This document shows, one piece after another, positions 44,946-64,000 of a stretch of 64,000 nucleotides of DNA. The stretch lies in sequence record PQ863253.1. One strand, 5' to 3'. Source of the stretch: Escherichia phage Ptacy1496. Both the position numbers and the translations under genes were made by a program. How positions within the stretch are numbered: position 1 is the first letter of the stretch; every line of letters begins with the position of its first letter. The notes under the pieces were generated by a model, which saw only the letters and a program-made list of their open reading frames with translations, was not told where the DNA came from and ran no database searches.

Positions 44946-44979
44946 CTTATTATTGAAAACACAATAGGAGCCCGGGAGA

Positions 44980-47900
44980 ATGGCCGAGATTAAAAGAAAG
45001 TTCAGAGCAGAAGATGGTCTGGACGCAGGTGGCGATAAAATAATCAACGTAGCTTTAGCTGACCGTACCGTAGGAACTGACGGTGTTAACGTTGATTACT
45101 TAATTCAAGAAAACACAGTTCAGCAATATGATCCAACTCGTGGATATTTAAAAGATTTTGTAATCATTTATAATAATCGTTTTTGGGCAGCAACGGATAA
45201 TATTCCAAAACCTGCTGGAAATTTTAATAGAATTCGTTGGAAAGCATTACGTACTGATGCCGTATATACAACCGTATCATCTGGACCATATCAATTAAAA
45301 TCCGGAGAAGCAATTTCAGTAGATACATCAGTTGGCAATGACATTGAGTTTACTTTACCACCTTCTCCGCTTGATGGAGAAACCGTAATAATTCAAGATA
45401 TCGGTGGAAAACCTGGCATAAATCAGGTTAAAATAAATTCTTCAAATCAGAGTATTGTCAATTTTAGAGGTGAACAGGTACGTTCAGTTTTAATGACTCA
45501 TCCAAAGTCACAGATGATATTCATTTTTAATAATCGTTTGTGGCAAATGTATGTTGCTGATTATAGCAGAGAAGCTGCGATTGTTACTCCATCGACTGCG
45601 TATCAAGCACAATCTAATGATTTTATCGTACGTAGATTTACTTCTGCTGCACCAATTAATGTTAAACTTCCGAGATTTGCTAATCATGGCGATATTATTA
45701 ATTTCGTTGATTTAGATAAACTGAATCCACTTTATCATACAATTGTTACTACATACGATGAAACGACTTCAGTACAAGAAGTTGGAACTCATTCCATTGA
45801 AGGCCGTACATCGATTGACGGTTTCTTGATGTTTGACGATAATGAGAAATTGTGGAGATTGTTTGACGGGGATAGTAAAGCACGTTTACGCATTATAACA
45901 ACTAATTCAAATATTCGTCCAAATGAAGAAGTCATGGTATTTGGCGCGAATAATGGAACAACCCAAACAATTGAACTTCAGCTTCCGACTGATATTTCTG
46001 TTGGTGATACTGTTAAAATTTCCATGAATTACATGAGAAAAGGACAAACAGTTAAAATCAAAGCTGCTGGTGAAGATAAAATTGCTTCTTCAGTTCAATT
46101 GCTGCAATTCCCAAAACGTTCAGAATATCCGCCTGAAGCTGAATGGGTAACAGTTCAAGAATTAGTTTTTAATGGTGAAACTAATTATGTACCAGTTTTG
46201 CAACTTGCTTATATAGAAGATTCTGATGGAAAATACTGGGTTGTACAGCAAAACGTTCCAACAGTTGAAAGAGTCGATTCTTTAAATAATTCTACTAGAG
46301 CAAGATTAGGCGTAATTGCTTTAGCTACACAAGCTCAAGCAAATGCTGATTTAGAAAATTCTCCACAAAAAGAATTAGCAATTACTCCAGAAACGTTAGC
46401 TAATCGTACTGCTACTGAAACTCGCAGAGGTATTGCAAGAATAGCAACTACTGCTCAAGTAAATCAGAACACTACATTCTCTTTTGCAGATGACCTTATC
46501 ATCACTCCTAAAAAGCTGAATGAAAGAACTGCTACAGAAACTCGCAGAGGTGTTGCTGAAATTGCTACGCAGCAGGAAACTAATACAGGTATCGATGATA
46601 CTACAATCATCACTCCTAAAAAGCTTCAAGCTCGTCAAGGTTCTGAATCATTATCTGGTATTGTAACTTTTGTATCTACCGCAGGAGCTACTCCAGCTTC
46701 TAGTCGTGAATTAAATGGTACGAATGTTTATAATAAAAACACTAATAATTTAGTTGTTTCACCTAAAGCTTTGGATCAGTATAAAGCTACTCCAACGCAA
46801 CAAGGCGCAGTAATTTTAGCAGTTGAAAGTGAAGTAATTGCTGGACAAAGCCAAGAAGGATGGGCAAATGCGGTTGTAACGCCAGAAACGTTACATAAAA
46901 AGACATCAACTGATGCAAGAATTGGTTTAATTGAAATTGCTACACAAAGTGAAGTTAATACAGGAACTGATTATACTCGTGCAGTCACTCCTAAAACTTT
47001 AAATGACCGTAGAGCAACTGAAAGTTTAAGTGGTATAGCTGAAATTGCTACACAGGTTGAATTCGACGCAGGCGTCGACGATACTCGTATCTCTACACCA
47101 TTAAAAATTAAAACCAGATTTAATAGTACTGATCGTACTTCTGTTGTTGCTCTATCTGGATTAGTTGAATCAGGAACTCTCTGGGACCATTATACCCTTA
47201 ATATTCTTGAAGCAAATGAGACACAGCGTGGTACACTTCGTGTAGCTACACAAGTTGAAGCTGCTGCAGGAACATTAGATAATGTTTTAATAACTCCTAA
47301 AAAGCTTTTAGGTACTAAATCTACCGAATCGCAAGAAGGTGTTATTAAAGTTGCAACTCAGTCTGAAACTGTGACTGGAACGTCAGCAAATACTGCTGTA
47401 TCTCCAAAAAATTTAAAATGGATTGTGCAGAGTGAACCAACTTGGGCAGCAACTACTCTGATAAGAGGGTTTGTTAAAACTTCTTCTGGTTCATTAACGT
47501 TTGTTGGTAATGATACGGTAGGTTCAACACAGCCATTAGAATCATATGAGAAAAATGGTTATGCAGTATCACCATATGAATTAAATCGCGTATTAGCAAA
47601 TTATTTGCCATTAAAAGCAAAAGCTGTAGATAGTAATTTATTAGATGGTCTAGATTCGCTCCAGTTCATTCGTAGGGACATTGCACAAACAGTTAATGGT
47701 TCACTAACCTTAACCCAACAAACGAATCTGGGTGCCCCTCTTGTATCATCTAGTACTGCTACATTCGGTGGATCAGTTTCAGCAAATAGTACATTAACTA
47801 TTTCTAATACTGGAACGGCAACTCGTCTGATTTTTGAGAAAGGACCTCAAACTGGAACAAACCCGGCTCAAACGATGACAGTCAGAGTGTGGGGAAATCA

Positions 47901-48849
47901 ATTTAGCGGGGAATCAGACACAACACGTTCTACCGTATTTGAAGTTAGTGATGAAACGTCTAGTCATTTTTATTCTCAGCGTAATAAAGCTGGAAATATA
48001 ACATTTAATATCAACGGTACAGTAACACCGATAAATGTTAATGCTTCAGGAACATTGAATGCAAATGGTGTAGCAACATTTGGTAATTCAGTCACTGCAA
48101 CTGGTGAAATTATTTCTCGAAGCGCAAATGCTTTCCGTGCTATTAACGGAAATTATGGTTTCATTGTTCGCAATGATGGATCAGTAACGAATTTTATGCT
48201 TACTGCATCGGGTGATCAGACTGGTGGATTTAATGGATTACGTCCTTTAGCTATTAATAATGCATCTGGCCAAGTAACGATTGGTGAAAGCTTAATCATT
48301 GCCAAAGGTGCTACTATAAATTCAGGCGGTTTGACTGTTAACTCGAGAATTCGTTCTCAGGGCACTAAAACATCTGATTTATACACCCGCGCGCCAACAT
48401 CTGATACAGTAGGATTCTGGTCAATCGATATTAATGATTCAGCCACTTATAACCAGTTCCCGGGTTATTTTAAAATGGTTGAAAAAACTAATGAAGTTAC
48501 TGGACTTCCATACTTAGAACGTGGTGAAGAAGTTAAATCTCCTGGTACATTGACTCAGTTTGGTAACACACTTGATTCACTTTACCAAGATTGGATTACT
48601 TATCCAACGACCCCAGAAGCACGTACCACTCGCTGGACACGTACATGGCAGAAAACCAAAAACTCTTGGTCAAGTTTTGTTCAGGTATTTGACGGAGGTA
48701 ACCCTCCTCAACCTTCAGATATAGGAGCGATCCCATCTGATAATGGAATAATAGGTAATCTTACTATTCGTGATTTCTTACGAATTGGTAATGTTCGCAT
48801 TATTCCTGACCCAGTGAATAAAACTGTTAAATTTGAATGGGTTGAATAA
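44980..48849 (+). CDS. 34: Long tail fiber proximal subunit gp34
   Basis: 1289 aa; repeated TPKxL ... ETRRG ... IATQ motifs. Confidence 0.95.
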   Translation: MAEIKRKFRAEDGLDAGGDKIINVALADRTVGTDGVNVDYLIQENTVQQYDPTRGYLKDFVIIYNNRFWAATDNIPKPAGNFNRIRWKALRTDAVYTTVSSGPYQLKSGEAISVDTSVGNDIEFTLPPSPLDGETVIIQDIGGKPGINQVKINSSNQSIVNFRGEQVRSVLMTHPKSQMIFIFNNRLWQMYVADYSREAAIVTPSTAYQAQSNDFIVRRFTSAAPINVKLPRFANHGDIINFVDLDKLNPLYHTIVTTYDETTSVQEVGTHSIEGRTSIDGFLMFDDNEKLWRLFDGDSKARLRIITTNSNIRPNEEVMVFGANNGTTQTIELQLPTDISVGDTVKISMNYMRKGQTVKIKAAGEDKIASSVQLLQFPKRSEYPPEAEWVTVQELVFNGETNYVPVLQLAYIEDSDGKYWVVQQNVPTVERVDSLNNSTRARLGVIALATQAQANADLENSPQKELAITPETLANRTATETRRGIARIATTAQVNQNTTFSFADDLIITPKKLNERTATETRRGVAEIATQQETNTGIDDTTIITPKKLQARQGSESLSGIVTFVSTAGATPASSRELNGTNVYNKNTNNLVVSPKALDQYKATPTQQGAVILAVESEVIAGQSQEGWANAVVTPETLHKKTSTDARIGLIEIATQSEVNTGTDYTRAVTPKTLNDRRATESLSGIAEIATQVEFDAGVDDTRISTPLKIKTRFNSTDRTSVVALSGLVESGTLWDHYTLNILEANETQRGTLRVATQVEAAAGTLDNVLITPKKLLGTKSTESQEGVIKVATQSETVTGTSANTAVSPKNLKWIVQSEPTWAATTLIRGFVKTSSGSLTFVGNDTVGSTQPLESYEKNGYAVSPYELNRVLANYLPLKAKAVDSNLLDGLDSLQFIRRDIAQTVNGSLTLTQQTNLGAPLVSSSTATFGGSVSANSTLTISNTGTATRLIFEKGPQTGTNPAQTMTVRVWGNQFSGESDTTRSTVFEVSDETSSHFYSQRNKAGNITFNINGTVTPINVNASGTLNANGVATFGNSVTATGEIISRSANAFRAINGNYGFIVRNDGSVTNFMLTASGDQTGGFNGLRPLAINNASGQVTIGESLIIAKGATINSGGLTVNSRIRSQGTKTSDLYTRAPTSDTVGFWSIDINDSATYNQFPGYFKMVEKTNEVTGLPYLERGEEVKSPGTLTQFGNTLDSLYQDWITYPTTPEARTTRWTRTWQKTKNSWSSFVQVFDGGNPPQPSDIGAIPSDNGIIGNLTIRDFLRIGNVRIIPDPVNKTVKFEWVE

Positions 48850-48857
48850 GAGGTATT

Positions 48858-49973
48858 ATGGAAAAATTTATGGCAGAGTTTGGACAAGGATATGTCCAAA
48901 CGCCATTTTTATCGGAAAGCAATTCAGTAAGATATAAAATAAGCATAGCGGGTTCTTGCCCGCTTTCTACTGCGGGGCCATATGTTAAATTTCAGGATAA
49001 TCCCGTTGGAAATCAAACATTTAGTGCAGGTCTTCATTTAAGAGTTTTTGACCCTTCTACGGGAGCATTAGTTGATAGCAAGTCATATGCTTTTTCTGCT
49101 TCAAACAATACAACATCTGCCGCTTTTGTCAGTTTCATGAATTCTTTGTCAAACAATAGACTTGTTGCTATATTAACTAGCGGAAAGGTTAATTTTCCTC
49201 CTGAAGTGGTATCTTGGTTAAGGGGAGCAGGAACTTCAGTTTTTCCATCAGATTCAGTATTGTCAAGATTTGACGTATCATATGCTGCTTTTTATACTTC
49301 TTCTAAAAGAGCTATTGCATTAGAGCATGTTAAACTAAGTAATAGAAAAAGCACAGATGATTATCAAACTATTTTAGATGTTGTATTTGATAGTTTAGAA
49401 GACGTCGGAGCGACAGGATTTCCAAAAAGAACTTATGAAAGTGTCGAGCAATTCATGTCAGCAGTTGGTGGAACTAATAACGAAATTGCGCGATTGCCAA
49501 CTTCAGCTGCTATAAGTAAACTTTCTGACTATAATTTAATTCCTGGTGATGTTCTTTATCTTAAAGCACAGTTATATGCTGATGCTGATTTACTTGATCT
49601 TGGAACTACAAACATATCCATTCGTTTTTATGATGCATCAAATGGATATATTTCCTCTACCCAAGCTGAGTTTACTGGGCAAGCTGGGTCTTGGGAATTA
49701 AAAGAAGACTATGTAGTTGTTCCAGAAAACGCCGTAGGATTTACGATATATGCACAAAGAACTGCTCAAGCAGGTCAAGGCGGCATGAGAAATTTAAGCT
49801 TTTCTGAAGTATCAAGAAATGGCGGCATTTCAAAACCTGCCGAATTTGGCGTCAACGGTATTCGCGTTAATTATGTCTGCGAATCGGCTTCACCTCCAGA
49901 TATAATGGTACTTCCTACACAAGCCTCTTCTAAAACTGGCAAAGTGTTTGGGCAAGAATTTAGAGAAGTTTAA
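48858..49973 (+). CDS. 35: Long tail fiber hinge protein gp35
   Basis: 371 aa; position between 34 and 36. Confidence 0.88.
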   Translation: MEKFMAEFGQGYVQTPFLSESNSVRYKISIAGSCPLSTAGPYVKFQDNPVGNQTFSAGLHLRVFDPSTGALVDSKSYAFSASNNTTSAAFVSFMNSLSNNRLVAILTSGKVNFPPEVVSWLRGAGTSVFPSDSVLSRFDVSYAAFYTSSKRAIALEHVKLSNRKSTDDYQTILDVVFDSLEDVGATGFPKRTYESVEQFMSAVGGTNNEIARLPTSAAISKLSDYNLIPGDVLYLKAQLYADADLLDLGTTNISIRFYDASNGYISSTQAEFTGQAGSWELKEDYVVVPENAVGFTIYAQRTAQAGQGGMRNLSFSEVSRNGGISKPAEFGVNGIRVNYVCESASPPDIMVLPTQASSKTGKVFGQEFREV

Positions 49974-49980
49974 ACTGAGG

Positions 49981-50007
49981 GAGCCTTCGGGTTCCCTTTT
50001 TTTTAAT
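49981..50007 (+). terminator. Terminator GGGAGCC-TTCG-GGTTCCC followed by T8
   Basis: GC-rich stem, UUCG loop, TTTTTTTT. Confidence 0.75.
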
Positions 50008-50035
50008 AAATAATATTAAAATAAAGGGGCATATA

Positions 50036-50686
50036 ATGGCTGATTTAAAAGTAGGTTCAACTGTAGGTGGATCTGTCATTTGGCATCAAGGAAATTTTCC
50101 ATTGAATTCAGCCGGTGACGATGTACTCTACAAATCATTTAAAATATATTCAGAATATAATAAACCGCAGGCAGCTGATAACGATTTCGTTTCTAAAGCT
50201 AATGGTGGTACTTACACCGGTCCAATTACTATTAATTACGGGGTAAATAGTTATCTTCAATTAAGTAATAATGAAACCCCCATCCGAATTCGTTCTGGTG
50301 GCGGCACTGGTAATACTCTTGTAGTTGGTGGCTCTTCTGGCGGTATTAGTTTTAGACCAGCAGGTAGTGAAATCACTACTGGACAAATTACTATTACGCC
50401 AGAAGGTTTGACAACATTTACCAAAGCTGTAACGGCTCCATCTGTAACTGTTACATCTACTCCTTCCGCAGCATCTGATGTTACTCGCAAAGATTATGTT
50501 GATGGAGCAATAAATACTGTTACAGCAAATGCAAACTCTAGGGTATTACGCTCTGGAGACACTATGACAGGAAATTTAACTGCGCCAAACCTTTTTTCAC
50601 AGAATCCTGCATCTCAACCTTCACACGTTCCACGATTTGACCAAATCGTAATTAAGGATTCTGTTCAAGATTTCGGCTATTATTAA
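50036..50686 (+). CDS. 36: Long tail fiber distal connector gp36
   Basis: 216 aa; position between 35 and 37. Confidence 0.88.
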
Positions 50687-50694
50687 GAGGACTT

Positions 50695-53661
50695 ATGGCT
50701 ACTTTAAAACAAATACAATTTAAAAGAAGCAAAACTGCGGGTCAACGTCCTGCTGCTTCAGTATTAGCCGAAGGTGAATTGGCTATAAACTTAAAAGATA
50801 AAACAATTTTCACAAAAGATGACTCAGGTAGTGTTATAGAATTAGGTTTAAAATATGGAGGAACAATTGATGGTTCTTTAACTGTTAATGGAAATATAAT
50901 TGGAAATTTAACAGGTAACGCTGCAACTGCAACGAAATTAAAAACAGCACGAAAAATTAATGGTATATCCTTTGATGGGTCAAAAGATATCACGCTAACT
51001 CCATCTGACATAAATGTCAATAGCACAACGTTTATAAAAAATAATGGCGAATTACCTGTTGATGCTAATTTAGATACGTATGGGCCTGTTGAAGAATATC
51101 TTGGAGTTTGGTCGAAAGCAACTTCAACCAACGCTCAACCAGCAAATAAATTTCCAGAAGAAAATGCTGTAGGTGTGCTAGAAGTATTTGTGGCCGGTCA
51201 ATTTGCTGGTACTCAGAGATATACAACTAGATACGGAAATGTTTATATTCGTTCCTTGACTGCTACATGGAACGGAGTAAATGGTCCGTGGAGTGTGTGG
51301 CGAAATATTCAATCCGGTACTCGTCCACTGTCAACAACAATTGATCTTAATGATCTAGGAGGTGCTGAACACTTTGGCTTGTGGAGGAATAGTTCAAATT
51401 CCATTGCTACCTTTGACAGAAATTTCCCAGAAGAGGGGTCGTCCGCTCAAGGTCTTTTGGAAGTATATGAAGGTGGAAACTATTCTCGCACACAGAGATA
51501 TACAACCAGATTTGGTGTTGTTTATACTCGTTGTCTTGCTGCCGCGTGGGATGCTTCTGCTCCTAAATGGGGACCGTGGCAACAAGTCGGTAATGTCACA
51601 CCGGCGACTTTCTATGACGGAGACCTGAATGATTTTAAAACTCCTGGGTTATATAATATTTTAGGTACTGATGCCGTTATTAACTGTCCTACAGGTGAAG
51701 GTTTGCCGACTGTTATTGTTGGTTTGCTGGAAGTTAAACAGCGTGCTTCTGGCGGTGCTATTTTCCAAAAATTTACTACTGCCGGAACGGGTGCAACTAC
51801 TCGCGATCGTATTTTTGAGCGTGCATATACCGGTGGCGCGTGGGGTACATGGAACGAAGTATATACATCTTACTCTTTGCCAATTACTTTGGGTATGGGT
51901 GGTATTAAAACTCAATTAGCGGAGCTAGATTGGCAAACATTTGATTTTGTTCCTGGTAGTATGTTTAGCGTTCCTTTGAACAAAATAAAGAACATGCCAG
52001 CAAATATGAATTGGGGTACAATTGACGGAAACTTAGTTATGTTTTCTGTCGGTCCTAGCGAACACACCAGCACAGGACGTACTGTTCAGGTTTGGCGTGG
52101 TACTGTATCCCAGACAAACTACCGTTATTTTGTCGTTCGTGTGTTCGGTAATTCTGGAAATAGAACTTGCACAGTTCGCCGTGTTGTTCTTGAAGACGGA
52201 TCACATACTTGGACTGCTCAACAAGATTTTAATGGTGCTGTTAACTTTGGTAGTTCAACAACGTTTAAATCAACTACAACATTTAATACAGAAGTTAAAT
52301 TTCGCTCATTGAATGCATTCCGTATGTATGGCGGAAAATTTGGTACATTTTTACGTAATGATGGAGAGAGTCTTTATATTCTTTCCACCGACGAAGATGA
52401 TCAAGATGGAAACTTTAATACAAATAGACCTTTCCGTTATGAATTAAGAACTGGTGATGTTACTTTGGGTGGTGCTAGTGGTGCTAACGTTTTAAAATTA
52501 AAACGTGATTCTCTCACCGCATTTTTTGGCGGTGATATTAACATTAAAGGCACGATGACTTTTGACGCCGGACGTTTAGGATCACGAGATTATTTTAAAT
52601 TTAACCATTGGGGTGATAGTAATAATGCGCGTGATAACATTATTCAGTTAGAAGACAGCAAAGGCGCTCATTTTTCAACTGAACGTACTTTAGCGACTGG
52701 TGCAATTAAGACTAAATTTTTTGGTGAAATTGAATCCGATGGTAAATTGGTTATTAAACGTCCGGGTGATTCTATTGTATTATCAACGACTGCTAGTAAT
52801 TCTTTGCATATTCGTGGTGACATAGACGGGACTGGTAACTGGTATATTGGTAAGGGTGGTGCTGATAATTCGCTAGCATTTTATAGCTATGCTTCTCAGG
52901 CGGCAGTACATATCACAAACAATGGTGAGATTGCGTTAAACCCGCAAAATACCGCAATGGTTAACGTTAACCGTGACCGTGTACACATTAACGGTTCTGG
53001 ATGGATTGCTAGACAACCGGGTGATTGGGGCAACCAATGGCGAGTAGAAGCTCCATTATTCGTTGATCATGGTTATGTTTCACAGGATTGTTATTATCCT
53101 ATTCTTAAAGCAAGAAGCGTTATAACCAATCAAGGATATAGCACCGCTGTTGACTTTGGTATGCGTCGTATTCCATCACAGTGGGGGCAAGCAATCATTC
53201 GTGTCGGATCCACGGAGGCTTCTCCTGATGCTGGACACCCACAAGCTGTGTTTGAATTCCATCATGATGGATTCTTTTATACACCAGGAAATGGTAGCTT
53301 TAGCGATGTGTATATTCGTTCTGACTCCCGTCTCAAGATTAATAAAGAAGAATTAGAATATGGAGCGGTCGAAAAAGTTTGCCGACTGAAAGTTTATATT
53401 TACGATAAAGTTAAGTCTATTAAAGACCGTAGTGTTATTAAACGTGAAGTTGGTATTATTGCTCAGGACCTTGAAAAGGAATTACCGGAAGCTGTATCTA
53501 AAGTTGAAGTTGATGGATCTGATGTTCTGACAATTTCTAACTCTGCTGTGAATGCTCTTTTAATTAAGGCTATTCAGGAAATGAGTGAAGAAATTAAAGA
53601 ATTGAAAACGCCTCTCTTTACTAAAATTGCTCGCAAAATTAGTAAATATTTTAAATTCTAA
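50695..53661 (+). CDS. 37: Long tail fiber distal subunit gp37, T2/T6-type with C-terminal intramolecular chaperone-like domain
   Basis: 988 aa; C-terminal SDSRLK ... IYIYD segment resembles self-cleaving chaperone domains of other phage fibres. Confidence 0.9.
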
Positions 53662-53697
53662 CAACAAGGGGGAAATGCCCCCTTTGGAGTATAAATT

Positions 53698-54480
53698 ATG
53701 GCAGTAGTTGGTGTTCCTGGTTGGATTGGAAGTTCAGCCGCAAATGAAACAGGACAACGCTGGATGAGTCAAGCGGCTGGTCAATTAAGATTGGGTGTTC
53801 CTTGCTGGATGAGTCAATTTGCAGGTCGCTCACGAGAAATTATTCACACGCTTGGAGCAGACCATAACTTCAATGGTCAATGGTTCCGAGATAGATGTTT
53901 TGAGGCAGGTAGTGCACCTATAGTGTTTAATATTACAGGTGATTTAGTATCATATTCTAAAGATGTTCCTTTATTCTTCATGTACGGAGATACACCAAAT
54001 GAATATGTTCAGTTAAATATACATGGCGTAACGATGTATGGTCGTGGAGGTAATGGTGGTAGCAATAGTCCTGGCTCAGCTGGGGGTCATTGTATTCAAA
54101 ACGATATTGGTGGGAGACTAAGAATTAATAATGGCGGAGCTATTGCAGGCGGTGGCGGTGGCGGTGGCGGCGGATATTATTCTCCTTTTTCACAAATGAG
54201 ATTGACCTTTGGCGGCGGTGGCGGTCGTCCTTTTGGTGCGCCAGGCGGATCTATTGATATGCAATCAGGCGCGACTGGTGGTACTATTTCTGCACCTGGC
54301 TCAGGATCCGTGAATGGTATCTATAATGGCGGAAACGGTGGTGAAGTAGGTTCCGCGGGAGGTAGATGCAATATTCGCGGTCAAGGATCTGAATATGATG
54401 GCGGTGCTGCTGGTTATGCTGTCATAGGGTCCGCTCCAACATGGCAAAATGTTGGAGCAATATATGGTCCAAGAGTATAA
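53698..54480 (+). CDS. 38: Tail fiber tip adhesin gp38 (T2/T6-type, glycine-rich)
   Basis: 260 aa; N-terminal gp37-attachment region then multiple Gly-rich motifs (GGNGG, GGGGGGGGG, GGGGG); unlike the shorter T4 gp38 chaperone. Confidence 0.88.
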
Positions 54481-54510
54481 TGTGAATAAATACCCTTAAA
54501 AGGAGGGTCT

Positions 54511-55167
54511 ATGGCAGCACCTAGAATATCATTTTCGCCCTCTGATATTCTATTTGGTGTTCTAGATCGCTTGTTCAAAGATAATGCTACCGGGAAAGTT
54601 CTTGCTTCCCGGGTAGCTGTCGTAATTCTTTTGTTTATAATGGCGATTGTTTGGTATAGGGGAGATAGTTTCTTTGAGTACTATAAGCAATCAAAGTATG
54701 AAACATACAGCGAAATTATTGAAAAGGAAAGAAATGCACGCTTTGAATCTGTCGCCCTGGAACAACTCCAGATAGTTCATATATCATCTGAGGCAGACTT
54801 TAGTGCGGTATATTCTTTCCGCCCTAAAAACTTAAACTATTTTGTTGATATTATAGCATACGAAGGAAAATTACCTTCAACAATAAGCGAAAAATCACTT
54901 GGAGGATATCCTGTTGATAAAACTATGGATGAATATGCAGTTCATTTAAATGGACGTCATTATTATTCCGACTCAAAATTTGCTTTTTTACCAACTAAAA
55001 AGCCTACTCCCGAAATAAATTACATGTACAGTTGTCCATATTTCAATTTGGATAATATCTATGCTGGAACAATAACCATGTACTGGTATAGAAATGATCA
55101 TATAAGTAATGACCGCCTTGAATCAATATGTTCTCAGGCGGCCAGAATATTAGGAAGGGCTAAATAA
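54511..55167 (+). CDS. t: Holin T
   Basis: 218 aa; single N-terminal TM segment and large periplasmic domain. Confidence 0.93.
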   Translation: MAAPRISFSPSDILFGVLDRLFKDNATGKVLASRVAVVILLFIMAIVWYRGDSFFEYYKQSKYETYSEIIEKERNARFESVALEQLQIVHISSEADFSAVYSFRPKNLNYFVDIIAYEGKLPSTISEKSLGGYPVDKTMDEYAVHLNGRHYYSDSKFAFLPTKKPTPEINYMYSCPYFNLDNIYAGTITMYWYRNDHISNDRLESICSQAARILGRAK

Positions 55168-55440
55168 TTATTTGTTTGTATACATCTCTAGATATCGATA
55201 TACACCCTCAAAACCCTCGTTGAATTCGTCGATGAGGGTTTTCTTATCTTCTTGGGTTAATTCAGAAACAATTTTACGGAATGAATTCTGATTTAACTTT
55301 CTACCTTCATGCGTTACTCCAATCTCATTCAGAAATGCAATAAAATTAGCACGATTCTCAACAATATCTTCTCTGGAAAATTTAATCAAAATAGACGCAA
55401 CAGTAATAATTTCACGAACTGTATCAATGTTTTTATTCAT
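55168..55440 (-). CDS. asiA: Anti-sigma70 factor AsiA
   Basis: 90 aa; recognised as T4 AsiA. Confidence 0.95.
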   Translation of the reverse strand: MNKNIDTVREIITVASILIKFSREDIVENRANFIAFLNEIGVTHEGRKLNQNSFRKIVSELTQEDKKTLIDEFNEGFEGVYRYLEMYTNK

Positions 55441-55452
55441 TAACTATACCAC

Positions 55453-55605
55453 TCAATTAGTTGACTTTGTTATAATATCATCAGACACTTGATTTGTAAA
55501 CTGGTCTGTGTTATTTTCTTCAAAAATTTTTTCTACGAATTCCTTGAACGACTCGCGTTCCTGAGCTACATTATGTTCGATTACCATTTCAAGATTATGA
55601 CTCAT
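55453..55605 (-). CDS. Possible small acidic protein, 50 aa, between arn and asiA
   Basis: ATG overlaps arn stop in an ATGA arrangement; contains the asiA promoter within its coding sequence. Confidence 0.3.
   Translation of the reverse strand: MSHNLEMVIEHNVAQERESFKEFVEKIFEENNTDQFTNQVSDDIITKSTN
55472..55501 (-). promoter_or_regulatory. Early promoter for asiA (-35 GTTTACA, 17 nt spacer, -10 TATTAT)
   Basis: Motifs read on minus strand 30-60 nt upstream of asiA ATG. Confidence 0.6.
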
Positions 55606-55880
55606 TCGAAATAATCTTCAATTTCGTAATCATGGACATAAATCATTATAGTTTTTAATACATCATCAATACTTTTTCCTGGAGCTGGAATTACGTAAAA
55701 ATATCCTGCTTTTGAGAGGTCTTTATAAGTTCCAACCAAGAAATCATTATTCTCGAGATGTAATTCTTCAACTAATTCATTAACAATTGAATGGTATAAA
55801 TTTGGTAGAAACTTATATAGCTTTTCTAGAATATCAATTTTGATTGTATATTGAACCACAGATTGAGAATCAATAATCAT
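55602..55880 (-). CDS. arn: Anti-restriction nuclease Arn
   Basis: 92 aa; recognised as T4 Arn by size, position and sequence. Confidence 0.8.
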   Translation of the reverse strand: MIIDSQSVVQYTIKIDILEKLYKFLPNLYHSIVNELVEELHLENNDFLVGTYKDLSKAGYFYVIPAPGKSIDDVLKTIMIYVHDYEIEDYFE

Positions 55881-55963
55881 AGACCTTCCCCTTATGTTTC
55901 TGTTTGCGATTAGATTCTTTAAACGCTTTCTTCTTATCTTTATGAACAGAAGCTTTATTAAAA

Positions 55964-56182
55964 TTATGCTTTGCGACTAAATTGTTCATAGTGCTGAATT
56001 ACCTCTCTCAAACATTTGCATGTGAATGAAAACTTTTTAGCTACACCACATTCAAATATATGTTCTCTTAAATCGCGTGTATCCGTATATCCCATCTCAA
56101 CAATAAAATGTCGTATTAGATTTTTATCTTTATCATTGAGAGAATTAAAATAATCGGATTTTGAATTAATTTCCCTGGCCAA
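55964..56182 (-). CDS. Hypothetical protein (arn.1 position)
   Basis: 72 aa ORF. Confidence 0.5.
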   Translation of the reverse strand: MAREINSKSDYFNSLNDKDKNLIRHFIVEMGYTDTRDLREHIFECGVAKKFSFTCKCLREVIQHYEQFSRKA

Positions 56183-56462
56183 ATTGAATCACCTTCAGTT
56201 GACGTTTTAGTTCTTTTATCATTTCTTCATTCATCGCAATATAAAGATCGCGTAAAGCGGGTTTTAACATTCCATTTACTGGAGAACTAAATGGACATAC
56301 ATAATCTTTTCCTACAAGCTTTTTAGTAAATTCCATATCACAGAACTTAAATCCCGGCTCATTGGTATAAATTCCCCAATTAGTTGACATCATTTTATTG
56401 GCATATTCTAGTGCCTGGATTTGATTCATAATTCCATCAATTTGAAACTTTTTAATATTCAT
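56166..56462 (-). CDS. Hypothetical protein (arn.2 position)
   Basis: 98 aa ORF. Confidence 0.55.
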   Translation of the reverse strand: MNIKKFQIDGIMNQIQALEYANKMMSTNWGIYTNEPGFKFCDMEFTKKLVGKDYVCPFSSPVNGMLKPALRDLYIAMNEEMIKELKRQLKVIQFGQGN

Positions 56463-56923
56463 TAGTAAAGGTCCTCAGAGTAAAGTTCTTTTTCACTACC
56501 ACCACGTTCAATACGTACTTGTCCAGCGTAAGTTGCAATAATCATTGCTTCTTCACGTGTCCAATAATTACTGTATTGGTCAATAAACCCTTGGTCATCA
56601 TCACAAACTTGTTGAGTAACTAATTGAGGTTTAACTACATCTAAAACTTCTGCCATATCTTTAGAATAATGACGAGCACCTGGAATAATAAGAGTTCGTC
56701 CATCTTTTAATTTAAAACGGTTGGCTGCACAGACAATTCGTCGTTGATACTTTTGGTTTTCATCCCAATACGCAGTCTGCCAACAGATTTCAGGAACTTC
56801 TTTCAGAATATCTTCTTCTGTGCATTTATAACCATGCGCTTTAAATTTTTCAGCAAGACTTTCTGGAGTTTCACGAGATAAAGGAACATTCAGCATTTTT
56901 AAACGATTGATAAATGGGTTCAT
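56462..56923 (-). CDS. Hypothetical protein (arn.3 position)
   Basis: 153 aa ORF. Confidence 0.6.
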
Positions 56924-57249
56924 TTAAACCATCCTTTAATACGTTGCCACAAAGTTTTCTGCTGAGCTTTGTTAACACCAATTGAACGAATAACCGGTTG
57001 AGATTCCTGGAATTCTTTATAATCGGCAAGGTAAATTTCGTAAGCTGCATCCGTAAATGAACTTATCGCTGCCATAAAATTATTGCGAATACCTACTGGA
57101 GCATCTTTACTTTCACGAATAATCATGTATTTACCAGTCTTAATCTTTACGATAGTTCCAAGATAAGCTCCATGGTACCAGATGTCCCAACCCTCTTGAG
57201 TAGGTTCTACACAACGACGAAGTTCATTGACAATTTCTAACTTGTTCAT
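56920..57249 (-). CDS. Hypothetical protein (arn.4 position)
   Basis: 109 aa ORF. Confidence 0.55.
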
Positions 57250-57259
57250 TATTTATTCC

Positions 57260-57895
57260 TCACAGTTCAGATGCTACAGTGATTACAGCTTCAATGTTTT
57301 CTGCCGAGCGTTTAATGTCAAGATACACATTACCGTTTTTAGCGATTTTACATGACATTCCGATATCAGTAAATTTCTGAATATGATGTTCCATCATTTT
57401 GTATCCAAAAATTCGCATATTTCCATTATTGTTAATTTCAAAATTACGAATTCCGTGAGTGCGTTTTTCTAAAATGGCAAGATAATTACTACGATAAGTT
57501 TCAACCTTTTTAAGAACAAATCCATTTTCATCTAAAAGTTTTAACATGAGGTCTTTATCTTCTTCCATATCAGAAGTAATCTCACGAGCTTTACGAGTTG
57601 CTCGTTTTTTCAGTAGTTCCGGAGCATTTTTCTGCGCGTATAAAGTTGCTGCGTTTGAAATAATATCTTGAGCTTCACCTGTAATGATTAATCCATCACC
57701 AGATTTCTCCACCAGGCCTTTTTTAATCAATACCCCAATATTACTATTAACTACTGCGTTACCTAAATCTGGATGCACCTCACGAACTTCTGCGGCTGTA
57801 ATGAAATCTTTCTTAGCAATAGTAATTAAAATCGCAGCAGTTTTTTCATTCAGAACATCGTTAGAAGCTTTGATGATGTAAGTCACTTTAGACAT
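57260..57895 (-). CDS. motA: Middle transcription activator MotA
   Basis: 211 aa; recognised as T4 MotA. Confidence 0.93.
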   Translation of the reverse strand: MSKVTYIIKASNDVLNEKTAAILITIAKKDFITAAEVREVHPDLGNAVVNSNIGVLIKKGLVEKSGDGLIITGEAQDIISNAATLYAQKNAPELLKKRATRKAREITSDMEEDKDLMLKLLDENGFVLKKVETYRSNYLAILEKRTHGIRNFEINNNGNMRIFGYKMMEHHIQKFTDIGMSCKIAKNGNVYLDIKRSAENIEAVITVASEL

Positions 57896-57931
57896 TTTAA
57901 TCTCCGTTTCAGTTCATTTATTTGATAGGTC

Positions 57932-57960
57932 TATAGTATCATGTTTAAAGCAGAAGTAAA
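57932..57960 (-). promoter_or_regulatory. Early promoter for motA (-35 GTTTAC, -10 TACTAT)
   Basis: Motifs with 17 nt spacer; leader CTATCAAATAAATGAACTGAAAC shared with promoter at 58268-58340. Confidence 0.6.
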
Positions 57961-57999
57961 CACTTTTTGCACTCTTTTTCAAGAGCTCTAATAAAGTAC

Positions 58000-58227
58000 T
58001 TACTTAATGTTCAGATTACGAACTTCGATTTCGTCTTCATGGGCAAAATCAAACTGTTTGAATTCTGTGTCACCTTTAAATTTAAAAATCATTGTGAAGA
58101 AAGTCAGAACACCAGGTTTTTCTTCACGAACTCCACAGATATCATATTCAATACCATCTACAACCAGTTTGTTAGCAGTCAGAGCATTTTTAGCTTTAAC
58201 GATTTCGTTTTCGATTTTAAATTTCAT
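58000..58227 (-). CDS. Hypothetical protein, 75 aa, in its own promoter-terminator cassette (motA.1 position)
   Basis: ORF with GGAG RBS directly downstream of cassette at 58268-58358. Confidence 0.6.
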   Translation of the reverse strand: MKFKIENEIVKAKNALTANKLVVDGIEYDICGVREEKPGVLTFFTMIFKFKGDTEFKQFDFAHEDEIEVRNLNIK

Positions 58228-58267
58228 TTTTTGTATCTCCGGGTTGTTTGTTTCAGTTCATTTATTT

Positions 58268-58358
58268 GATAGTTGTATAGTACCACAGTATGCTTTGGTT
58301 GTAAACCGTTTTGTGAAAAAATTTTTGAAATAAAAAAGGGAGAGCCGAGGCTCTCCCT
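58268..58358 (-). promoter_or_regulatory. Terminator (GGGAGAGCC stem-loop plus U-run) and early promoter cassette (PeSL-like), paralogous to 40999-41087
   Basis: About 57 bp identical to the gene 32-downstream cassette outside the 17 nt spacer, including gatagttgtatagtac and tgtaaaccgttttgtgaaaaaatttttgaaataaaaaaggg. Confidence 0.65.
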
Positions 58359-58362
58359 AAAA

Positions 58363-58512
58363 TTACTGCATGACTGTGATAACTGTCATGATAACACGTT
58401 GAATTCCGAACGCAAGAAGACCTCCTGCTACGGCAGGAACAACACCTAAACCCGCCAGTAAAATGCCACCAGATACTAATGCAGCGCTTGTGATACCAAT
58501 GAATGGACTCAT
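58363..58512 (-). CDS. Small hydrophobic protein, 49 aa, start overlapping the gene 52 stop (ATGA)
   Basis: Hand translation MSPFIGITSAALVSGGILLAGLGVVPAVAGGLLAFGIQRVIMTVITVMQ; GAGG RBS; Gly-zipper-like TM segment. Confidence 0.55.
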   Translation of the reverse strand: MSPFIGITSAALVSGGILLAGLGVVPAVAGGLLAFGIQRVIMTVITVMQ

Positions 58513-59837
58513 TTGATTTCCTCTAAATCTTTGGTGTATTCTGTAACTACATCAGTAGTTTTCCAATATTCGTTTTCTTCTTTTTTGGCTTTAGCTTCTT
58601 CAGCAAGTTTCTTTGCTTCGTCGGAAGTCATATGAAAAATGTTCATTCCAACTAGTTTATCAACATAAGAAGAATACACATCAATTTTAGAAAGTTCTTC
58701 GGTCAGTTCTTTGCGAGTTTTACCTTGTACAACAATTTCACCTGAAATTACTTTCTTAATGAAATGTGCCTTGGCAAAAGCTAAACGAAATGCTGATTCA
58801 GTTTCTTTGATTTTGTTATCAATTCGTTTTTGGACATAAGTTTTACGAACTTCAACGAAGTCTTTGATTAAATCAACTACATTATCGTAAACTTGCAGCT
58901 TTCCTTTCTCATTAATGACGGTAATATTCTGGGAACGACGCTCAATCAACCCGAAGTCTTTCATAATTTTTGCATGGCGTTCTTCTTCATTATCGCTCAA
59001 AGAGTATTCTTTTCGGAATTTAACTTTGAAGCCAAAGCCATGCTCACCACAAGCATCATCCCATGTAATGAAGCCTTTATCTTCAAGCGGGTCTAAGATT
59101 TTACTCACATAAGTTTCACGATCATACTTATATGGAATCTCAGTGATATGCATTTGAGTTCGTGAAGTAAACTTATATGTTCCACGAATTTCATATTGCC
59201 CATCAATTTCAACGACTTCACCACGAAATTCTGGGAATTCTACCTTCGGTTTAGTTACTTTCTTTCCTTGAAGAGCTTGCAGTACAGCTTTCTTGACAGA
59301 AGAAACACTATGAGGAAGAATGTAAGTTGCATAACCAGTTGCAATACCGGAAACGCCATTAAGAAGAACAGTAGGAATAATAGGCAAATAGAAAGCAGGC
59401 GGAATGTGTTCTTTATCTTGATGTACTGGAGCATATTCAGTATCTTTATATACGTTATAGAAATTTTTACTTACACGAGCAAAAATATAACGACTTGCTG
59501 CTGCCTTTTGGACAGTACGAGAACCAAAGTTTCCTTGACCGTCTAACAGAGGAAAGTTATTATTCCAAGTGTTAGCCATCAAAGCACCTGCGTCTTGCGC
59601 AGAGTTTTCACCATGATGATATCCAAGGTCAGCTACACCGCCTGCGATAGAAGCGAGTTTGTGAAACTTATCTTTATTTCCTCGTGCCAAATCAAGAGCT
59701 CGAGCAATAACAAATCGTTGAACTGGCTTAAATCCGTCAATCATATTTGGAATGGCACGATTTTCAACCGTGTACATAGCATAAGCCAATGCTTCATTAT
59801 CAATGATACTTTTTAAATCACGATTATTCAGTTGCAT
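58509..59837 (-). CDS. 52: DNA topoisomerase II medium subunit gp52
   Basis: 442 aa; gyrase A-like N-terminal region; recognised as T4 gp52. Confidence 0.95.
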   Translation of the reverse strand: MQLNNRDLKSIIDNEALAYAMYTVENRAIPNMIDGFKPVQRFVIARALDLARGNKDKFHKLASIAGGVADLGYHHGENSAQDAGALMANTWNNNFPLLDGQGNFGSRTVQKAAASRYIFARVSKNFYNVYKDTEYAPVHQDKEHIPPAFYLPIIPTVLLNGVSGIATGYATYILPHSVSSVKKAVLQALQGKKVTKPKVEFPEFRGEVVEIDGQYEIRGTYKFTSRTQMHITEIPYKYDRETYVSKILDPLEDKGFITWDDACGEHGFGFKVKFRKEYSLSDNEEERHAKIMKDFGLIERRSQNITVINEKGKLQVYDNVVDLIKDFVEVRKTYVQKRIDNKIKETESAFRLAFAKAHFIKKVISGEIVVQGKTRKELTEELSKIDVYSSYVDKLVGMNIFHMTSDEAKKLAEEAKAKKEENEYWKTTDVVTEYTKDLEEIK

Positions 59838-59841
59838 AAAT

Positions 59842-59982
59842 TTACCATACTAGTGAATGTAGTGCCATAATAACATCAGAAATGAAAAGCACGACTTGAA
59901 TTAATCCGAACATTATTCCGTAATATAATGCTATCAATAAAATAGCAAGGGCTAATGAATAGCCCAAGATTTTCTTAATCAT
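59842..59982 (-). CDS. Small hydrophobic protein, 46 aa (52.1 position)
   Basis: Hand translation MIKKILGYSLALAILLIALYYGIMFGLIQVVLFISDVIMALHSLVW. Confidence 0.5.
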   Translation of the reverse strand: MIKKILGYSLALAILLIALYYGIMFGLIQVVLFISDVIMALHSLVW

Positions 59983-60133
59983 TAGTAGATAACAACACAA
60001 ATGTTAAATATGCACACATACCCTGAGCTAAAGCTTGCGAAAACACACTGCTGGCATCAATACAGATAGTTAAAACACATGCTACTATCCAACAAATAAA
60101 TGAAATAACTCCTAATAATTTTGCGATATTCAT
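59975..60133 (-). CDS. ac: Small membrane protein Ac (acriflavine sensitivity), 52 aa
   Basis: Hand translation MNIAKLLGVISFICWIVACVLTICIDASSVFSQALAQGMCAYLTFVLLSTND; size and position between 52 and stp. Confidence 0.6.
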   Translation of the reverse strand: MNIAKLLGVISFICWIVACVLTICIDASSVFSQALAQGMCAYLTFVLLSTND

Positions 60134-60140
60134 ATTTTCC

Positions 60141-60221
60141 TCACTGGCGTCCGAAGACGCCTTTAGTTTTAAGATTATTACGATAGAACTGCATCACGTG
60201 TTCGTTGTGGAAATTACTCAT
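60141..60221 (-). CDS. stp: Stp peptide (26 aa), suppressor of pseT phenotype / host restriction modulator
   Basis: Hand translation [26 protein letters not shown] matches T4 Stp; start overlaps ndd stop. Confidence 0.85.
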
Positions 60222-60679
60222 TAATATGCCTGCAAAACGAATTTAAAATTATCAGCCAACATACGGTTCATTTCTTCAAGTGTTTGATACTCAGAATGAT
60301 GATTACGAGTAAACGCTAAAGCTAACTGTCCTTTTCCAAATCCCGTCGTCAGAGGTTTCATCTTAGAAGCAGGCAGATAAAATACTGTGTATACCATATT
60401 GTTATTTGCAATAGTACGTGCAAGCTGAGACCGACGTTGACGAATATGACTTAGAACTGCACTGAATCCTTGCTTAGAACGCTGATTACCTACATAAAAT
60501 CGTGCAGACACACATGGATTACTAAATGGACGACCATCTAATTTACTTACTAAAAAATAAAATCCAGGTTTAGATAAAATATCTTTATGCGGAGTTCCCA
60601 AAAACCACTCACCACCCTTGATTGTGCCAATAACAGTAGCGCCTGCATTATTCAGATCAGTAACAGTCATGTATTTCAT
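60221..60679 (-). CDS. ndd: Nucleoid disruption protein Ndd
   Basis: 152 aa from [13 protein letters not shown]; recognised as T4 Ndd. Confidence 0.88.
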
Positions 60680-60739
60680 ATTAATTTCCTCTAAATTATT
60701 TTCTACTCCAAGGCCGCGTGTATTCATGCGGCCATTAAA

Positions 60740-60955
60740 TTAATCGTCGCAGTCGACGCTCAATTCCCAAAACTCTTCTACGGTATAAGTTTCAGTATCA
60801 TTTTCAATACAGAAACGTTCATTACTGTTATTTGCTAAAGTAGCGTTAACTGTCATTTTCTCGCTGGTGCTCTTAAGAGGTGAAATACGAATTAACTGAT
60901 CACCACTATCCAAGCAAAAAATTTCACCAACTTTTACATCTTTAAAGATTTTCAT
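60740..60955 (-). CDS. Hypothetical protein (ndd.1 position)
   Basis: 71 aa ORF. Confidence 0.55.
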   Translation of the reverse strand: MKIFKDVKVGEIFCLDSGDQLIRISPLKSTSEKMTVNATLANNSNERFCIENDTETYTVEEFWELSVDCDD

Positions 60956-61070
60956 AATTCACCTCAAGGAGTATAAAATCCAAATGCAGTTGTTGACCAT
61001 CCCATCCAATATGGAAAATTTGCGCCAATGTAAAACATAAGAATATAAAACCAACCACTCAGCAAATTCA

Positions 61071-61289
61071 TCATTTTACACCATTCCAAATTGTTTCAAC
61101 CACGGATTTTAAACCATTTTGATGAATATCCATTCCGACTACCGTCATCAAATAAATTCCAACTACAACTGAACCTAAGGCAAAAATCAGCATGAAAATG
61201 AATAAAGCCGGAAAAATATTATCGAAAAACCATTCAATAAATGTAAAAGCACTGCGTTTACGCTTCATATTTTCCTCACATAAATCCAA
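61071..61289 (-). CDS. Hypothetical membrane protein, 72 aa
   Basis: ORF with two predicted hydrophobic helices. Confidence 0.55.
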   Translation of the reverse strand: MDLCEENMKRKRSAFTFIEWFFDNIFPALFIFMLIFALGSVVVGIYLMTVVGMDIHQNGLKSVVETIWNGVK

Positions 61290-61389
61290 AGTAAACGTTT
61301 AATACATCAATCATTAAAACGATTGGGAATATACTCAAAACTATTAGTATTATAACTACATTCCATATAGCTTTAACAATCTTTTTCAT
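61276..61389 (-). CDS. Small membrane peptide, 37 aa, downstream of early promoter at 61400-61450
   Basis: MKKIVKAIWNVVIILIVLSIFPIVLMIDVLNVYFGFM with GGAGG RBS. Confidence 0.5.
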   Translation of the reverse strand: MKKIVKAIWNVVIILIVLSIFPIVLMIDVLNVYFGFM

Positions 61390-61632
61390 TTTCTGTTCCT
61401 CCGTAGTTGATAGGGTAATAGTACCACGGAAGAACAGTCTTGTAAACAACTTTTTTAAAAATATTCGTAATAAATGTGAATACCAATCACTACTGCCGAA
61501 ACTTGTGCAACCCACCATGCACACGCAATAAGTACAGAATTCAAAATTTTCATAATAACCTCATCACAAAAGTAAATGTTAAACAAATTACTGGAATACT
61601 AATTAACCAAACAAAACACCAACATAATGAAC

Positions 61633-61896
61633 TCATAGTTCAATCTCAACGATTTCCAAGTGTTTTTGTTTTATTGCCTTTTTAACACAATCATGGACTA
61701 AATATGACCATGAATCATTATATTCTCCATTAACTAATCGTTGGAGATCTTCACGTGATGATAAGTAAGGTTGATCTGATTCCCATTTTGATAAAAATAC
61801 TGCAGTAAAAATATCTCCTTCATCTGTAGTTGAAGTCGTAAATGCAATAAATTCACCGGTAATTTTATGTTTAGCGTAATAAAATTTAAATTTCAT
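61633..61896 (-). CDS. Hypothetical protein, 87 aa, downstream of early promoter at 61900-61970
   Basis: Start at MKFKFYYAK with GGAGGAG RBS; ORF track extension upstream is promoter read-through. Confidence 0.6.
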   Translation of the reverse strand: MKFKFYYAKHKITGEFIAFTTSTTDEGDIFTAVFLSKWESDQPYLSSREDLQRLVNGEYNDSWSYLVHDCVKKAIKQKHLEIVEIEL

Positions 61897-61970
61897 TTTT
61901 ACTCCTCCGTAGCTGATAGCTGTATAGTACCACGGTCCTTGTGGTATGTAAACTGTTTTGTGAAAATTTT

Positions 61971-62528: not shown

Positions 62529-62790
62529 TTAGACTTTCCTTTTTACCACTGAGATAAGCGTTATATACTTTAAGAGTGCCGTAATAAATTCGGTCATTTT
62601 CATCTAAAGACTCGCGGTCAAGTTCATCGAGCTCCTTTTTATCCATGACTATAACATCATTACAGTAAAGAAACCCAAGTTTTTCGTGACCAAACTCAAA
62701 TTTATTACAGTACACAATATTAGCGTGATGATTTCCGTGCAGTTTAATCTCTTTTATGTCGGAATCACCGATATTCATACAATAAATCAT
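62461..62790 (-). CDS. Hypothetical protein (denB.1 position), 3' end overlapping denB start
   Basis: 109 aa ORF with AAGGA RBS. Confidence 0.5.
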   Translation of the reverse strand: MIYCMNIGDSDIKEIKLHGNHHANIVYCNKFEFGHEKLGFLYCNDVIVMDKKELDELDRESLDENDRIYYGTLKVYNAYLSGKKESLNAENESGFTETISDSDIYPIEQ

Positions 62791-62805
62791 AATTTTTCCT
62801 TAAAA

Positions 62806-62822
62806 CAAAAGGGCCGAAGCCC
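62806..62822 (-). terminator. GGGC-UUCG-GCCC hairpin followed by U-rich tract on minus strand
   Basis: Inverted repeat plus UUUUGUUUUAAGG downstream on minus strand. Confidence 0.5.
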
Positions 62823-62827
62823 TTATT

Positions 62828-63022: not shown

Positions 63023-63050
63023 AATTTTCCTCAGTTAAGGGCCGAAGCCC

Positions 63051-63989: not shown

Positions 63990-64000
63990 AATTTTCCTTA

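Follow-up and report, generated by a model that had tools for sequence, protein, structure and literature searches.

The long tail fibre locus analysed here lies in a window of 64,000 nucleotides from Escherichia phage Ptacy1496 (PQ863253.1), which by its sequence is a Tequatrovirus genome. The nearest genome is that of Escherichia phage vB_EcoM_G4498 (MK327939), with 99.3% identity across the first 25 kb of the window. The genes follow the order 34-35-36-37-38-t-asiA, in agreement with the annotated loci of T6 and T4, and all features described below lie on the plus strand. Gene 37 (50695..53661) is an open reading frame for the T6-type distal subunit of the long tail fibre, 988 residues in length. 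It is followed, after an intergenic gap of 36 nt, by gene 38 (53698..54480), whose 260-residue product is assigned to the receptor-recognising adhesins of the T6/Tsx class, and by the holin gene t (54511..55167; PF11031, 1.8e-117), which fixes the T-even gene order. Antisense or overlapping frames in the ORF list for this region are short and unsupported.

The gap between the two genes holds a GC hairpin (53665..53686) with the core GGGGG-AAAUG-CCCCC (minimum free energy -14.7 kcal/mol, z -2.4), and the record of phage fPS-65 lists a terminator feature within its match to the gp37-gp38 region. Terminator-like matches inside the genes were dismissed as artefacts of the glycine tracts. The late promoter TATAAATA has no exact match from 44946 to 64000, the nearest lying at 44938, upstream of gene 34. 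At 53689-53696, TATAAATT adjoins the ATG of gene 38. Transcription from T4 late promoters starts a few bases downstream, and since the start would here fall inside the ORF, this element probably cannot serve as a late promoter of gene 38. Sigma-70-like sites are not enriched, being fewer than in shuffled sequences (9 versus 16.5), and scanning 50000-55500 against Rfam (E <= 0.1) returned no match.

Over its full length, gp37 matches PHROG 1699, 'long tail fiber protein distal subunit' (2.4e-228), and is 91% identical in amino acids to gp37 of T6, which differs by a 6-residue insertion and scattered differences. With T4 gp37 it has in common a conserved N-terminal segment, aa 1-66 (50695..50892; 79% identity), beyond which identity reaches at most ~25%. 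From what is known of T4, we take this segment to be the junction to gp36. A needle tip of the T4 type was considered for gp37 and rejected, the alignment being limited to aa 1-66 and weak shaft repeats. The shaft itself is a mosaic. G4498 is 97-100% identical to the window in the gp37 termini, the holin gene and the flanks, but differs in a replaced shaft cassette (~52080..52810), where identity in 100-nt windows is 35-79% compared with 94-100% in the flanking sequence. Its sequence matches Shigella phage ESh29 at 97% and T6 at 93% identity. An exact look-up in a collection of 15 billion proteins did not find the exact gp37 sequence, which is explained by the cassette swap and represents nothing new in kind; the swap is routine tail-fibre mosaicism.

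The preliminary description, made from the letters of the DNA, held that gp37 ends in an SDSRLK-containing domain resembling self-cleaving fibre chaperones, and a profile match, an alignment and a predicted fold all bear this out, with cleavage itself as a prediction. SDSRLK occupies aa 876-881 (53320-53337), 113 residues from the C-terminus, and begins a domain spanning aa 876-988 (53320..53658) whose residues 876-934 match PF13884 (E 6.4e-10, 39.6 bits against a cut-off of 22). A search with the C-terminal 228 residues yielded 27 homologues, mostly fragments, and all but one are annotated with the same family. In 22 gp37 homologues whose upstream tips differ, Ser876 and Lys881 never vary. 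Also invariant in 22 homologues is D871-R875, the DVYIR strand that ends the distal tip (aa 761-875; 52975..53319). The AlphaFold2 monomer model is good for the chaperone part only, with pLDDT values of 81-91 there and low confidence in the tip upstream of the cleavage site. Its top fold match is the MyRF ICA domain (7DC3; E 3e-4, prob 1.0), followed by 3GUD (prob 0.99), 4UW8 and 3GW6, the phage matches being weak by E-value. Sequence and model support the assignment of this C-terminus as a Peptidase_S74 intramolecular chaperone.

These fold matches all belong to the intramolecular-chaperone family. The S74 chaperones of K1F endosialidase (3GW6), phi29 gp12 (3GUD), T5 pb1 (4UW8) and MyRF (7DC3) share with gp37 the predicted fold, the Pfam match and, where the chain is cut, a conserved Ser-x4-Lys. 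The Ser and Lys reportedly form a catalytic dyad, according to the endosialidase work of Schulz et al. from 2010. What sets gp37 apart from these is that its domain sits on a T-even fibre tip, where cleavage would go beyond tailspike maturation and open a surface on which a second protein, the adhesin, can dock. A guide to this arrangement is phage S16, in which the position of the autocleavage site is described (PMC7917993). The site DVYIR^SDSRLK of the window aligns with DLNVS^SDRRIK of the S16 chaperone (6F45_A), which likewise releases 113 residues at an S^SDxRxK site, although the S16 tip upstream of cleavage is unrelated in sequence. We therefore predict from the sequence that gp37 would cleave itself N-terminal to Ser876 and release 113 residues. 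The tip left after cleavage would, by analogy with S16 (PMC7917993), be the docking surface for gp38. T6 has the same cleavage motif and differs at two positions in the C-terminal 113 residues.

Directly 3' of this chaperone-ending gp37 lies gp38, which matches the GP38 family over the entire profile (PF05268, positions 1-218 of 218 at aa 47-260; 1.4e-71, 241 bits against a cut-off of 25), Gp38_N at aa 1-42 (PF21721; 6e-20, 71 bits) and, in full length, PHROG 2056, 'tail fiber protein; host specificity' (2.7e-112). It also matches two solved adhesins, PP01 gp38 (PDB 9V85, 8e-79) and S16 gp38 (6F45_D, 1e-49). An AlphaFold2 model (pLDDT 87.8, pTM 0.80) superposes on 9V85 with E 1.5e-27, a target TM of 0.87 and an rmsd of 2.4 A, and finds 6F45_D with E 3.9e-22; Foldseek gave no other match below E = 1. 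The modelled fold agrees with a beta-helix plus a polyglycine-II sandwich. The T2/T6-type receptor-recognition module put forward in the preliminary description is thus supported by family, structure matches and model, and can be narrowed to a T6-type (Tsx class) module. The protein is the same as gp38 of G4498 (QBO64293.1), and an identical protein is recorded on 20 contigs. At the DNA level, 146 records of T6-class gp38 genes match at least 80% of gene 38.

Gene 38 occupies the same position as in T4, and some database records still call T6 gp38 a 'distal long tail fiber assembly catalyst'. These two points would suit a T4-type assembly chaperone that stays outside the virion, with gp37 carrying the receptor-binding tip. 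We consider this hardly credible: the full-length alignment with the chaperone-type gp38 of T4 that had been named as evidence against an adhesin did not appear, the best BLASTP hit having E = 1.7 over 12 residues. Moreover, gp38 matches adhesin families and solved adhesin structures in full length, and gp37 ends in an S74 chaperone instead of the T4 needle tip. An adhesin placed at the tip of the virion and binding an outer-membrane receptor is what we infer for gp38 from its identity or near-identity to the adhesins of tested phages.

The details of gp38 fit the architecture of this class. The N-terminal attachment domain (aa 1-42; 53698..53823) carries the Trp prongs W9, W22 and W37, whose attachment role has been described for S16 gp38 (PMC6851490). 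Tryptophan stands at all three prong positions in 94 of 119 aligned sequences (the query and 118 homologs, scored for conservation column by column), and the internal DNA repeats D2 and D3 mirror the repeated W-helix units. Glycine accounts for 63 residues (24%), with 34% in aa 116-260 versus 12% in aa 1-115, and forms 13 runs, among them GGGGGGGGG at aa 151-159 and GGGGG at aa 172-176. The glycine columns 115-120, 129-130, 152-156, 173-176, 180, 183, 201 and 218 are invariant. The nine-Gly tract (54148..54174) aligns with the central polyglycine-II helix 3 of S16 gp38, 151-GGGGGGGG-158 (PMC6851490), and a further Gly-rich motif at aa 172-184 (54211..54249) is invariant or nearly so at most positions.

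Between these conserved motifs the 119-sequence alignment shows variable segments, so that the glycine-rich, loop-interrupted 260-residue protein with a nine-Gly run that had been described at the outset is recovered in both the counts and the conservation profile. Five segments of low conservation can be placed as loops. Loop A (aa 122-128, SNSPGSA; 54061..54081) corresponds to PP01 loop-A 119-124; loop B (HVS2, aa 160-171; 54175..54210) also shows indels; loop C (aa 185-193; 54250..54276) corresponds to PP01 loop-C; loop D covers aa 204-210 (54307..54327); and loop E (aa 223-234; 54364..54399) is equivalent to PP01 loop-E. Loop B is duplicated in PYps47T and is where the host-range residues 167R and 168I of phage PST map, and the PST residue 208I (T6 numbering) aligns in loop D, at G207 of the query.

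Comparison with characterised adhesins narrows down the receptor. S16 gp38 (PDB 6F45) aligns over its full length and shares the three Trp prongs and a polyglycine sandwich whose central Gly helix is long, but is ~44% identical and has other loop sequences. The best structural match is the receptor-binding domain of PP01 gp38, which binds OmpC of O157 and has 67% identity and the same five-loop layout from A to E; its loops differ throughout, and therefore a different receptor is expected. T6, in contrast, has a gp38 of 94% identity with almost identical loops (differences S165P, D187N and P200S); it is one residue longer, an additional Gly following aa 110, and carries several substitutions in the N-terminal half. 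Closer still are the adhesins of RB5 and RB3, with seven residue differences, and of WilhelmHis (Bas35) with six: D234N in loop E and five others confined to the conserved N-terminal half. WilhelmHis depends on tsx, as demonstrated by complementation (PMC8594841), and Tsx is used by T6-like adhesins including those of RB5 and RB14 (PMC3157838). With so few differences from a Tsx-dependent adhesin, gp38 likely uses the nucleoside channel Tsx as its receptor in E. coli.

Small changes are known to shift this specificity: exchanging one to three loop residues of a T6-like adhesin can confer additional specificity for OmpA, LPS or Yersinia, as in PST, which lies three loop residues from T6 and gains recognition of OmpA and Yersinia (PMC3157838). 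[quoted passage not shown] A main receptor other than Tsx (OmpA, OmpF, FadL or the LPS core), or a polyvalent range including Yersinia hosts, nevertheless appears unlikely. The query has Q166/M167 and G207 like T6, where PST has R, I and I, its loops agree with those of the Tsx-dependent T6, RB5 and WilhelmHis, and the LPS-core dependence may stem from the short tail fibres rather than from gp38. Because PST and fPS-65 shift specificity with few changes, the Tsx assignment is strong only for hosts of the E. coli K-12 type.

The glycine tracts are also of interest at the DNA level, as the ggcggtggc-type repeats had been proposed to slip during replication. The nine codons read GGC GGT GGC GGT GGC GGT GGC GGC GGA, TRF finds 3.8 copies of GGCGGT (period 6) at 54148-54170, and the nine-Gly tract recurs as a direct repeat in the DNA of the aa 172-184 motif (D4; 17 nt, 88%). 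Close relatives vary at these places. PYps32T has three additional residues within the nine-Gly tract, the five-Gly tract of D5505 is one Gly shorter, and the 18-residue duplication of loop B in PYps47T is bounded by the two D4 repeats. All three nucleotide differences from the G4498 gp38 gene are synonymous and lie inside the nine-Gly tract. Among 11 relatives, third positions are variable at 6 of 9 sites in the tract versus 36 of 252 elsewhere (Fisher p = 7e-4), although the excess becomes borderline when other Gly codons serve as the reference (p = 0.047), and relatedness among the phages does not enter the test.

Gly motifs have earlier been proposed in the literature as recombination hot spots, and these observations could be taken to mean that the GGC/GGT tracts form a contingency element, prone to slippage or recombination, that generates in-frame length variants and duplicated loops frequently enough for host-range adaptation. 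Family-wide tract length speaks against it: the longest Gly run has 8-9 residues in 92 of the 119 sequences and the GGGGG tract five in 116, from which we conclude that length variants are rarely retained. An indel in PYps15T, in addition, falls outside the tracts. We regard such an element as rather doubtful. The slippage proposal is partly borne out by indels, a duplication and synonymous changes at the tracts of close relatives, whereas tract length is conserved in the family as a whole; comparative support for slippage is modest. A more specific version, in which the two Gly tracts flanking loop B act as a built-in recombination and slippage cassette, always in frame, that repeatedly yields loop-B duplications and tract-length variants like those of PYps47T and PYps32T, is quite improbable.

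Taken together, the locus very probably encodes the distal module with which the long tail fibre of a T6-like Tequatrovirus recognises its receptor, a reading that includes predicted chaperone cleavage, docking of gp38 and binding to Tsx. The trimeric gp37 fibre would fold with the aid of the intramolecular chaperone at its C-terminus (aa 876-988). Once the trimer has formed, the Ser876/Lys881 dyad would cut between Arg875 and Ser876, freeing the 113-residue chaperone and exposing the fibre tip, on which a single gp38 monomer would dock via W9, W22 and W37. In gp38, the nine-Gly run and the other conserved Gly-rich motifs are predicted to form polyglycine-II helices that stack as a three-layer sandwich, and the variable segments would form the distal loops that bind the outer-membrane receptor, most likely Tsx in E. 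coli.

The gp37 chaperone, the polyglycine sandwich and variable loops of gp38 and tail-fibre mosaicism are all known from published work; gp38 is identical in sequence to deposited proteins, and the exact gp37 sequence is the sole item not yet on record. The practical value lies in annotation. Sequence alone suffices to place the phage in the T6/Tsx adhesin class, which opens no new question and helps host-range prediction and the choice of phages. A mildly useful addition is that natural length variants among near-identical gp38 genes fall mostly in the DNA repeats of the Gly tracts, and that exchange between two such tracts can duplicate a whole receptor loop. If the cassette proposed above were true, the Gly tracts would be more than a structural motif and would offer a cheap generator of diversity for host-range shifts.

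The receptor-recognition module of phage Ptacy1496 lies in a T-even tail-fibre block where ORF calls, with Pfam and PHROG assignments, place gp34 (44980-48849), gp35 (48858-49973), gp36 (50036-50686), gp37 (50695-53661, 988 aa), gp38 (53698-54480, 260 aa) and the holin gene t (54511-55167), and asiA on the minus strand closes the block. Gene order is that of the annotated T6 and T4 loci, and the segment delimited in the preliminary description, 50695-54480, coincides with the span between the gp37 start codon and the gp38 stop codon. The closest genome, the Tequatrovirus Escherichia phage vB_EcoM_G4498 (hereafter G4498), shows 99.3% identity over the window's first 25 kb and 94-100% across the locus, save for a cassette at ~52080-52810 (35-79%) that matches Shigella phage ESh29 at 97% and T6 at 93%. 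Because of this cassette swap, the best full-length DNA match of gp37 reaches only 94%, and its exact protein sequence was not found in the public protein collection. The swap is ordinary tail-fibre shuffling, situated in the shaft and away from the tip. Over its full length gp37 is 91% identical to T6 gp37, and it resembles T4 gp37 at aa 1-66 only. Elsewhere in the region, gp35 carries at aa 58-112 a Pfam ILEI match (PF15711, interleukin-like EMT inducer; E 8e-8, 33.1 bits, cut-off 27). Within the small-ORF block between asiA and motA, a patch at ~56600-56950 diverges from G4498 with indels and a drop to 17-79% identity; the equivalent region of G4498 has an additional annotated 51-aa ORF.

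Several lines of evidence support gp38 as the T2/T6-type adhesin proposed in the preliminary description. The Pfam profiles GP38 (1.4e-71, whole profile) and Gp38_N (6e-20) both match, as do the solved adhesins of PP01 (9V85, 8e-79) and of Salmonella phage S16 (6F45_D, 1e-49, full length). A T4-type identity was rejected: BLASTP against T4 gp38, with which a full-length alignment had been named as contrary evidence, gave a best E of 1.7, leaving the adhesin reading standing. An AlphaFold2 model (pLDDT 87.8, pTM 0.80) retrieved 9V85 (target TM 0.87, rmsd 2.4 A) and 6F45_D (E 4e-22), and the search of the PDB with this model found nothing further below E = 1. Residues W9, W22 and W37 are the counterparts of the three tryptophans by which S16 gp38 attaches to the tip of gp37 (PMC6851490). 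Glycine accounts for 63 residues (24%), rising from 12% in the N-terminal part to 34% in aa 116-260, and forms 13 runs, among them five Gly at aa 172-176 and nine at aa 151-159 (54148-54174). The latter, encoded by GGC GGT GGC GGT GGC GGT GGC GGC GGA and detected by TRF as a period-6 repeat, aligns to 151-GGGGGGGG-158 of S16 gp38, the long polyglycine-II helix at the centre of that protein's fold. These counts agree with the composition and ggcggtggc-type coding described earlier, and the expected variable segments between Gly motifs are present: aligning gp38 with 118 homologues shows conservation in the Gly motifs and the N-terminal half, and variation in five indel-bearing segments (aa 122-128, 160-171, 185-193, 204-210 and 223-234). 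One homologue, P0034 (303 aa, from an E. coli assembly), combines Peptidase_S74, Gp38_N and GP38 domains in one ORF, which reflects either a fusion of the gp37 chaperone with gp38 or an error of assembly or annotation.

The partner protein ends in the SDSRLK-containing, chaperone-like domain anticipated for it. PF13884 (Peptidase_S74) matches gp37 aa 876-934 above the curated cut-off, and SDSRLK occupies aa 876-881, 113 residues before the end. Across its C-terminal 138 residues gp37 aligns with the S16 chaperone (6F45_A), and RSDSRLK falls opposite SSDRRIK. S16 gp37 autocleaves its last 113 residues at DLNVS^SDRRIK, to which DVYIR^SDGRLK of the fPS phages aligns (PMC7917993); the site here, DVYIR^SDSRLK, predicts a fragment of the same length. 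D871 to D877, R879, L880 and K881 are invariant in 22 homologues with unrelated upstream tips. Modelled with AlphaFold2 (pLDDT 81-91), this part best matches MyRF ICA 7DC3 (E 3e-4), phi29 gp12 3GUD, T5 pb1 4UW8 and endosialidase 3GW6, all of the intramolecular chaperone family. The C-terminus is thus supported as a self-cleaving intramolecular chaperone, and we infer that gp37 is cleaved and gp38 docks onto it.

The gap separating gp37 from gp38 contains a GC hairpin at 53665-53686 (-14.7 kcal/mol, z -2.4), which has a GGGGG-AAAUG-CCCCC core and is followed by UUUGG; in the fPS-65 record, a terminator feature is annotated under the match to this gp37-gp38 region. Rfam families gave no match in 50000-55500, and no exact late-promoter box occurs after 44938. 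A second hairpin, ACCCTTAAAAGGAGGGT at 54492-54508, overlaps the Shine-Dalgarno sequence of t and could affect its translation initiation.

Nothing tested about this module is new, and identical copies of the gp38 protein, that of G4498 included, are recorded on 20 public contigs. T6 gp38 is 94% identical with only three loop differences (S165P, D187N, P200S); RB5/RB3 gp38 is seven residues apart and WilhelmHis/Bas35 gp38 six, five in the conserved N-terminal half plus D234N in loop E (aa 223-234). WilhelmHis depends on tsx, as shown with complementation (PMC8594841), and T6-like adhesins, RB5 and RB14 among them, use Tsx (PMC3157838). Owing to this near-identity to Tsx-using adhesins, the primary receptor on E. 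coli is most likely Tsx, and T6/Tsx class is supported as a sharper label than T2/T6-type. A caveat is that minor substitutions in the loops of this class can extend recognition to OmpA, LPS or Yersinia (PMC3157838). PST gp38 has 167R, 168I and 208I, whereas the T6 residues stand here at all three positions; fPS-65 gp38, two residues apart, belongs to a phage that requires LPS inner-core heptoses on Yersinia (PMC7917993).

Replication slippage at the Gly tracts, also suggested in the preliminary description, is partly supported. Among close relatives, PYps32T gp38 gains three residues (GGV) within the nine-Gly tract and D5505 loses one Gly from GGGGG. In gp38 of Yersinia phage PYps47T (278 aa), for which the source paper reports a 15-aa insertion against sister phages and nothing more (PMC8762354), an 18-aa duplication comprises loop B (aa 160-171) and six Gly. 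It is bounded by the Gly-tract DNA repeats flanking this loop, which form a direct repeat (17 nt, 88%, 66 nt apart), and since its junction is a hybrid of both, it looks like unequal exchange between them. The gp38 gene differs from that of G4498 by three nucleotides, all synonymous and all inside the 27-nt tract. With relatedness ignored, third positions vary across 11 relatives at 6/9 tract codons against 36/252 elsewhere (Fisher p = 7e-4), a difference that is marginal against other Gly codons (p = 0.047). The tract (54148-54174) is a hot spot of synonymous GGC/GGT/GGA changes in near-identical gp38 genes. Slippage accords with these in-frame indels and synonymous changes, but the first tract keeps a length of 8-9 Gly in 92/119 sequences and the second tract one of five Gly in 116/119, and an indel of PYps15T falls outside the tracts. 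Judged from these comparisons, in-frame change does occur at the Gly tracts, in line with earlier proposals for the Gly motifs (PMC3157838 among them), and structure limits which variants persist.
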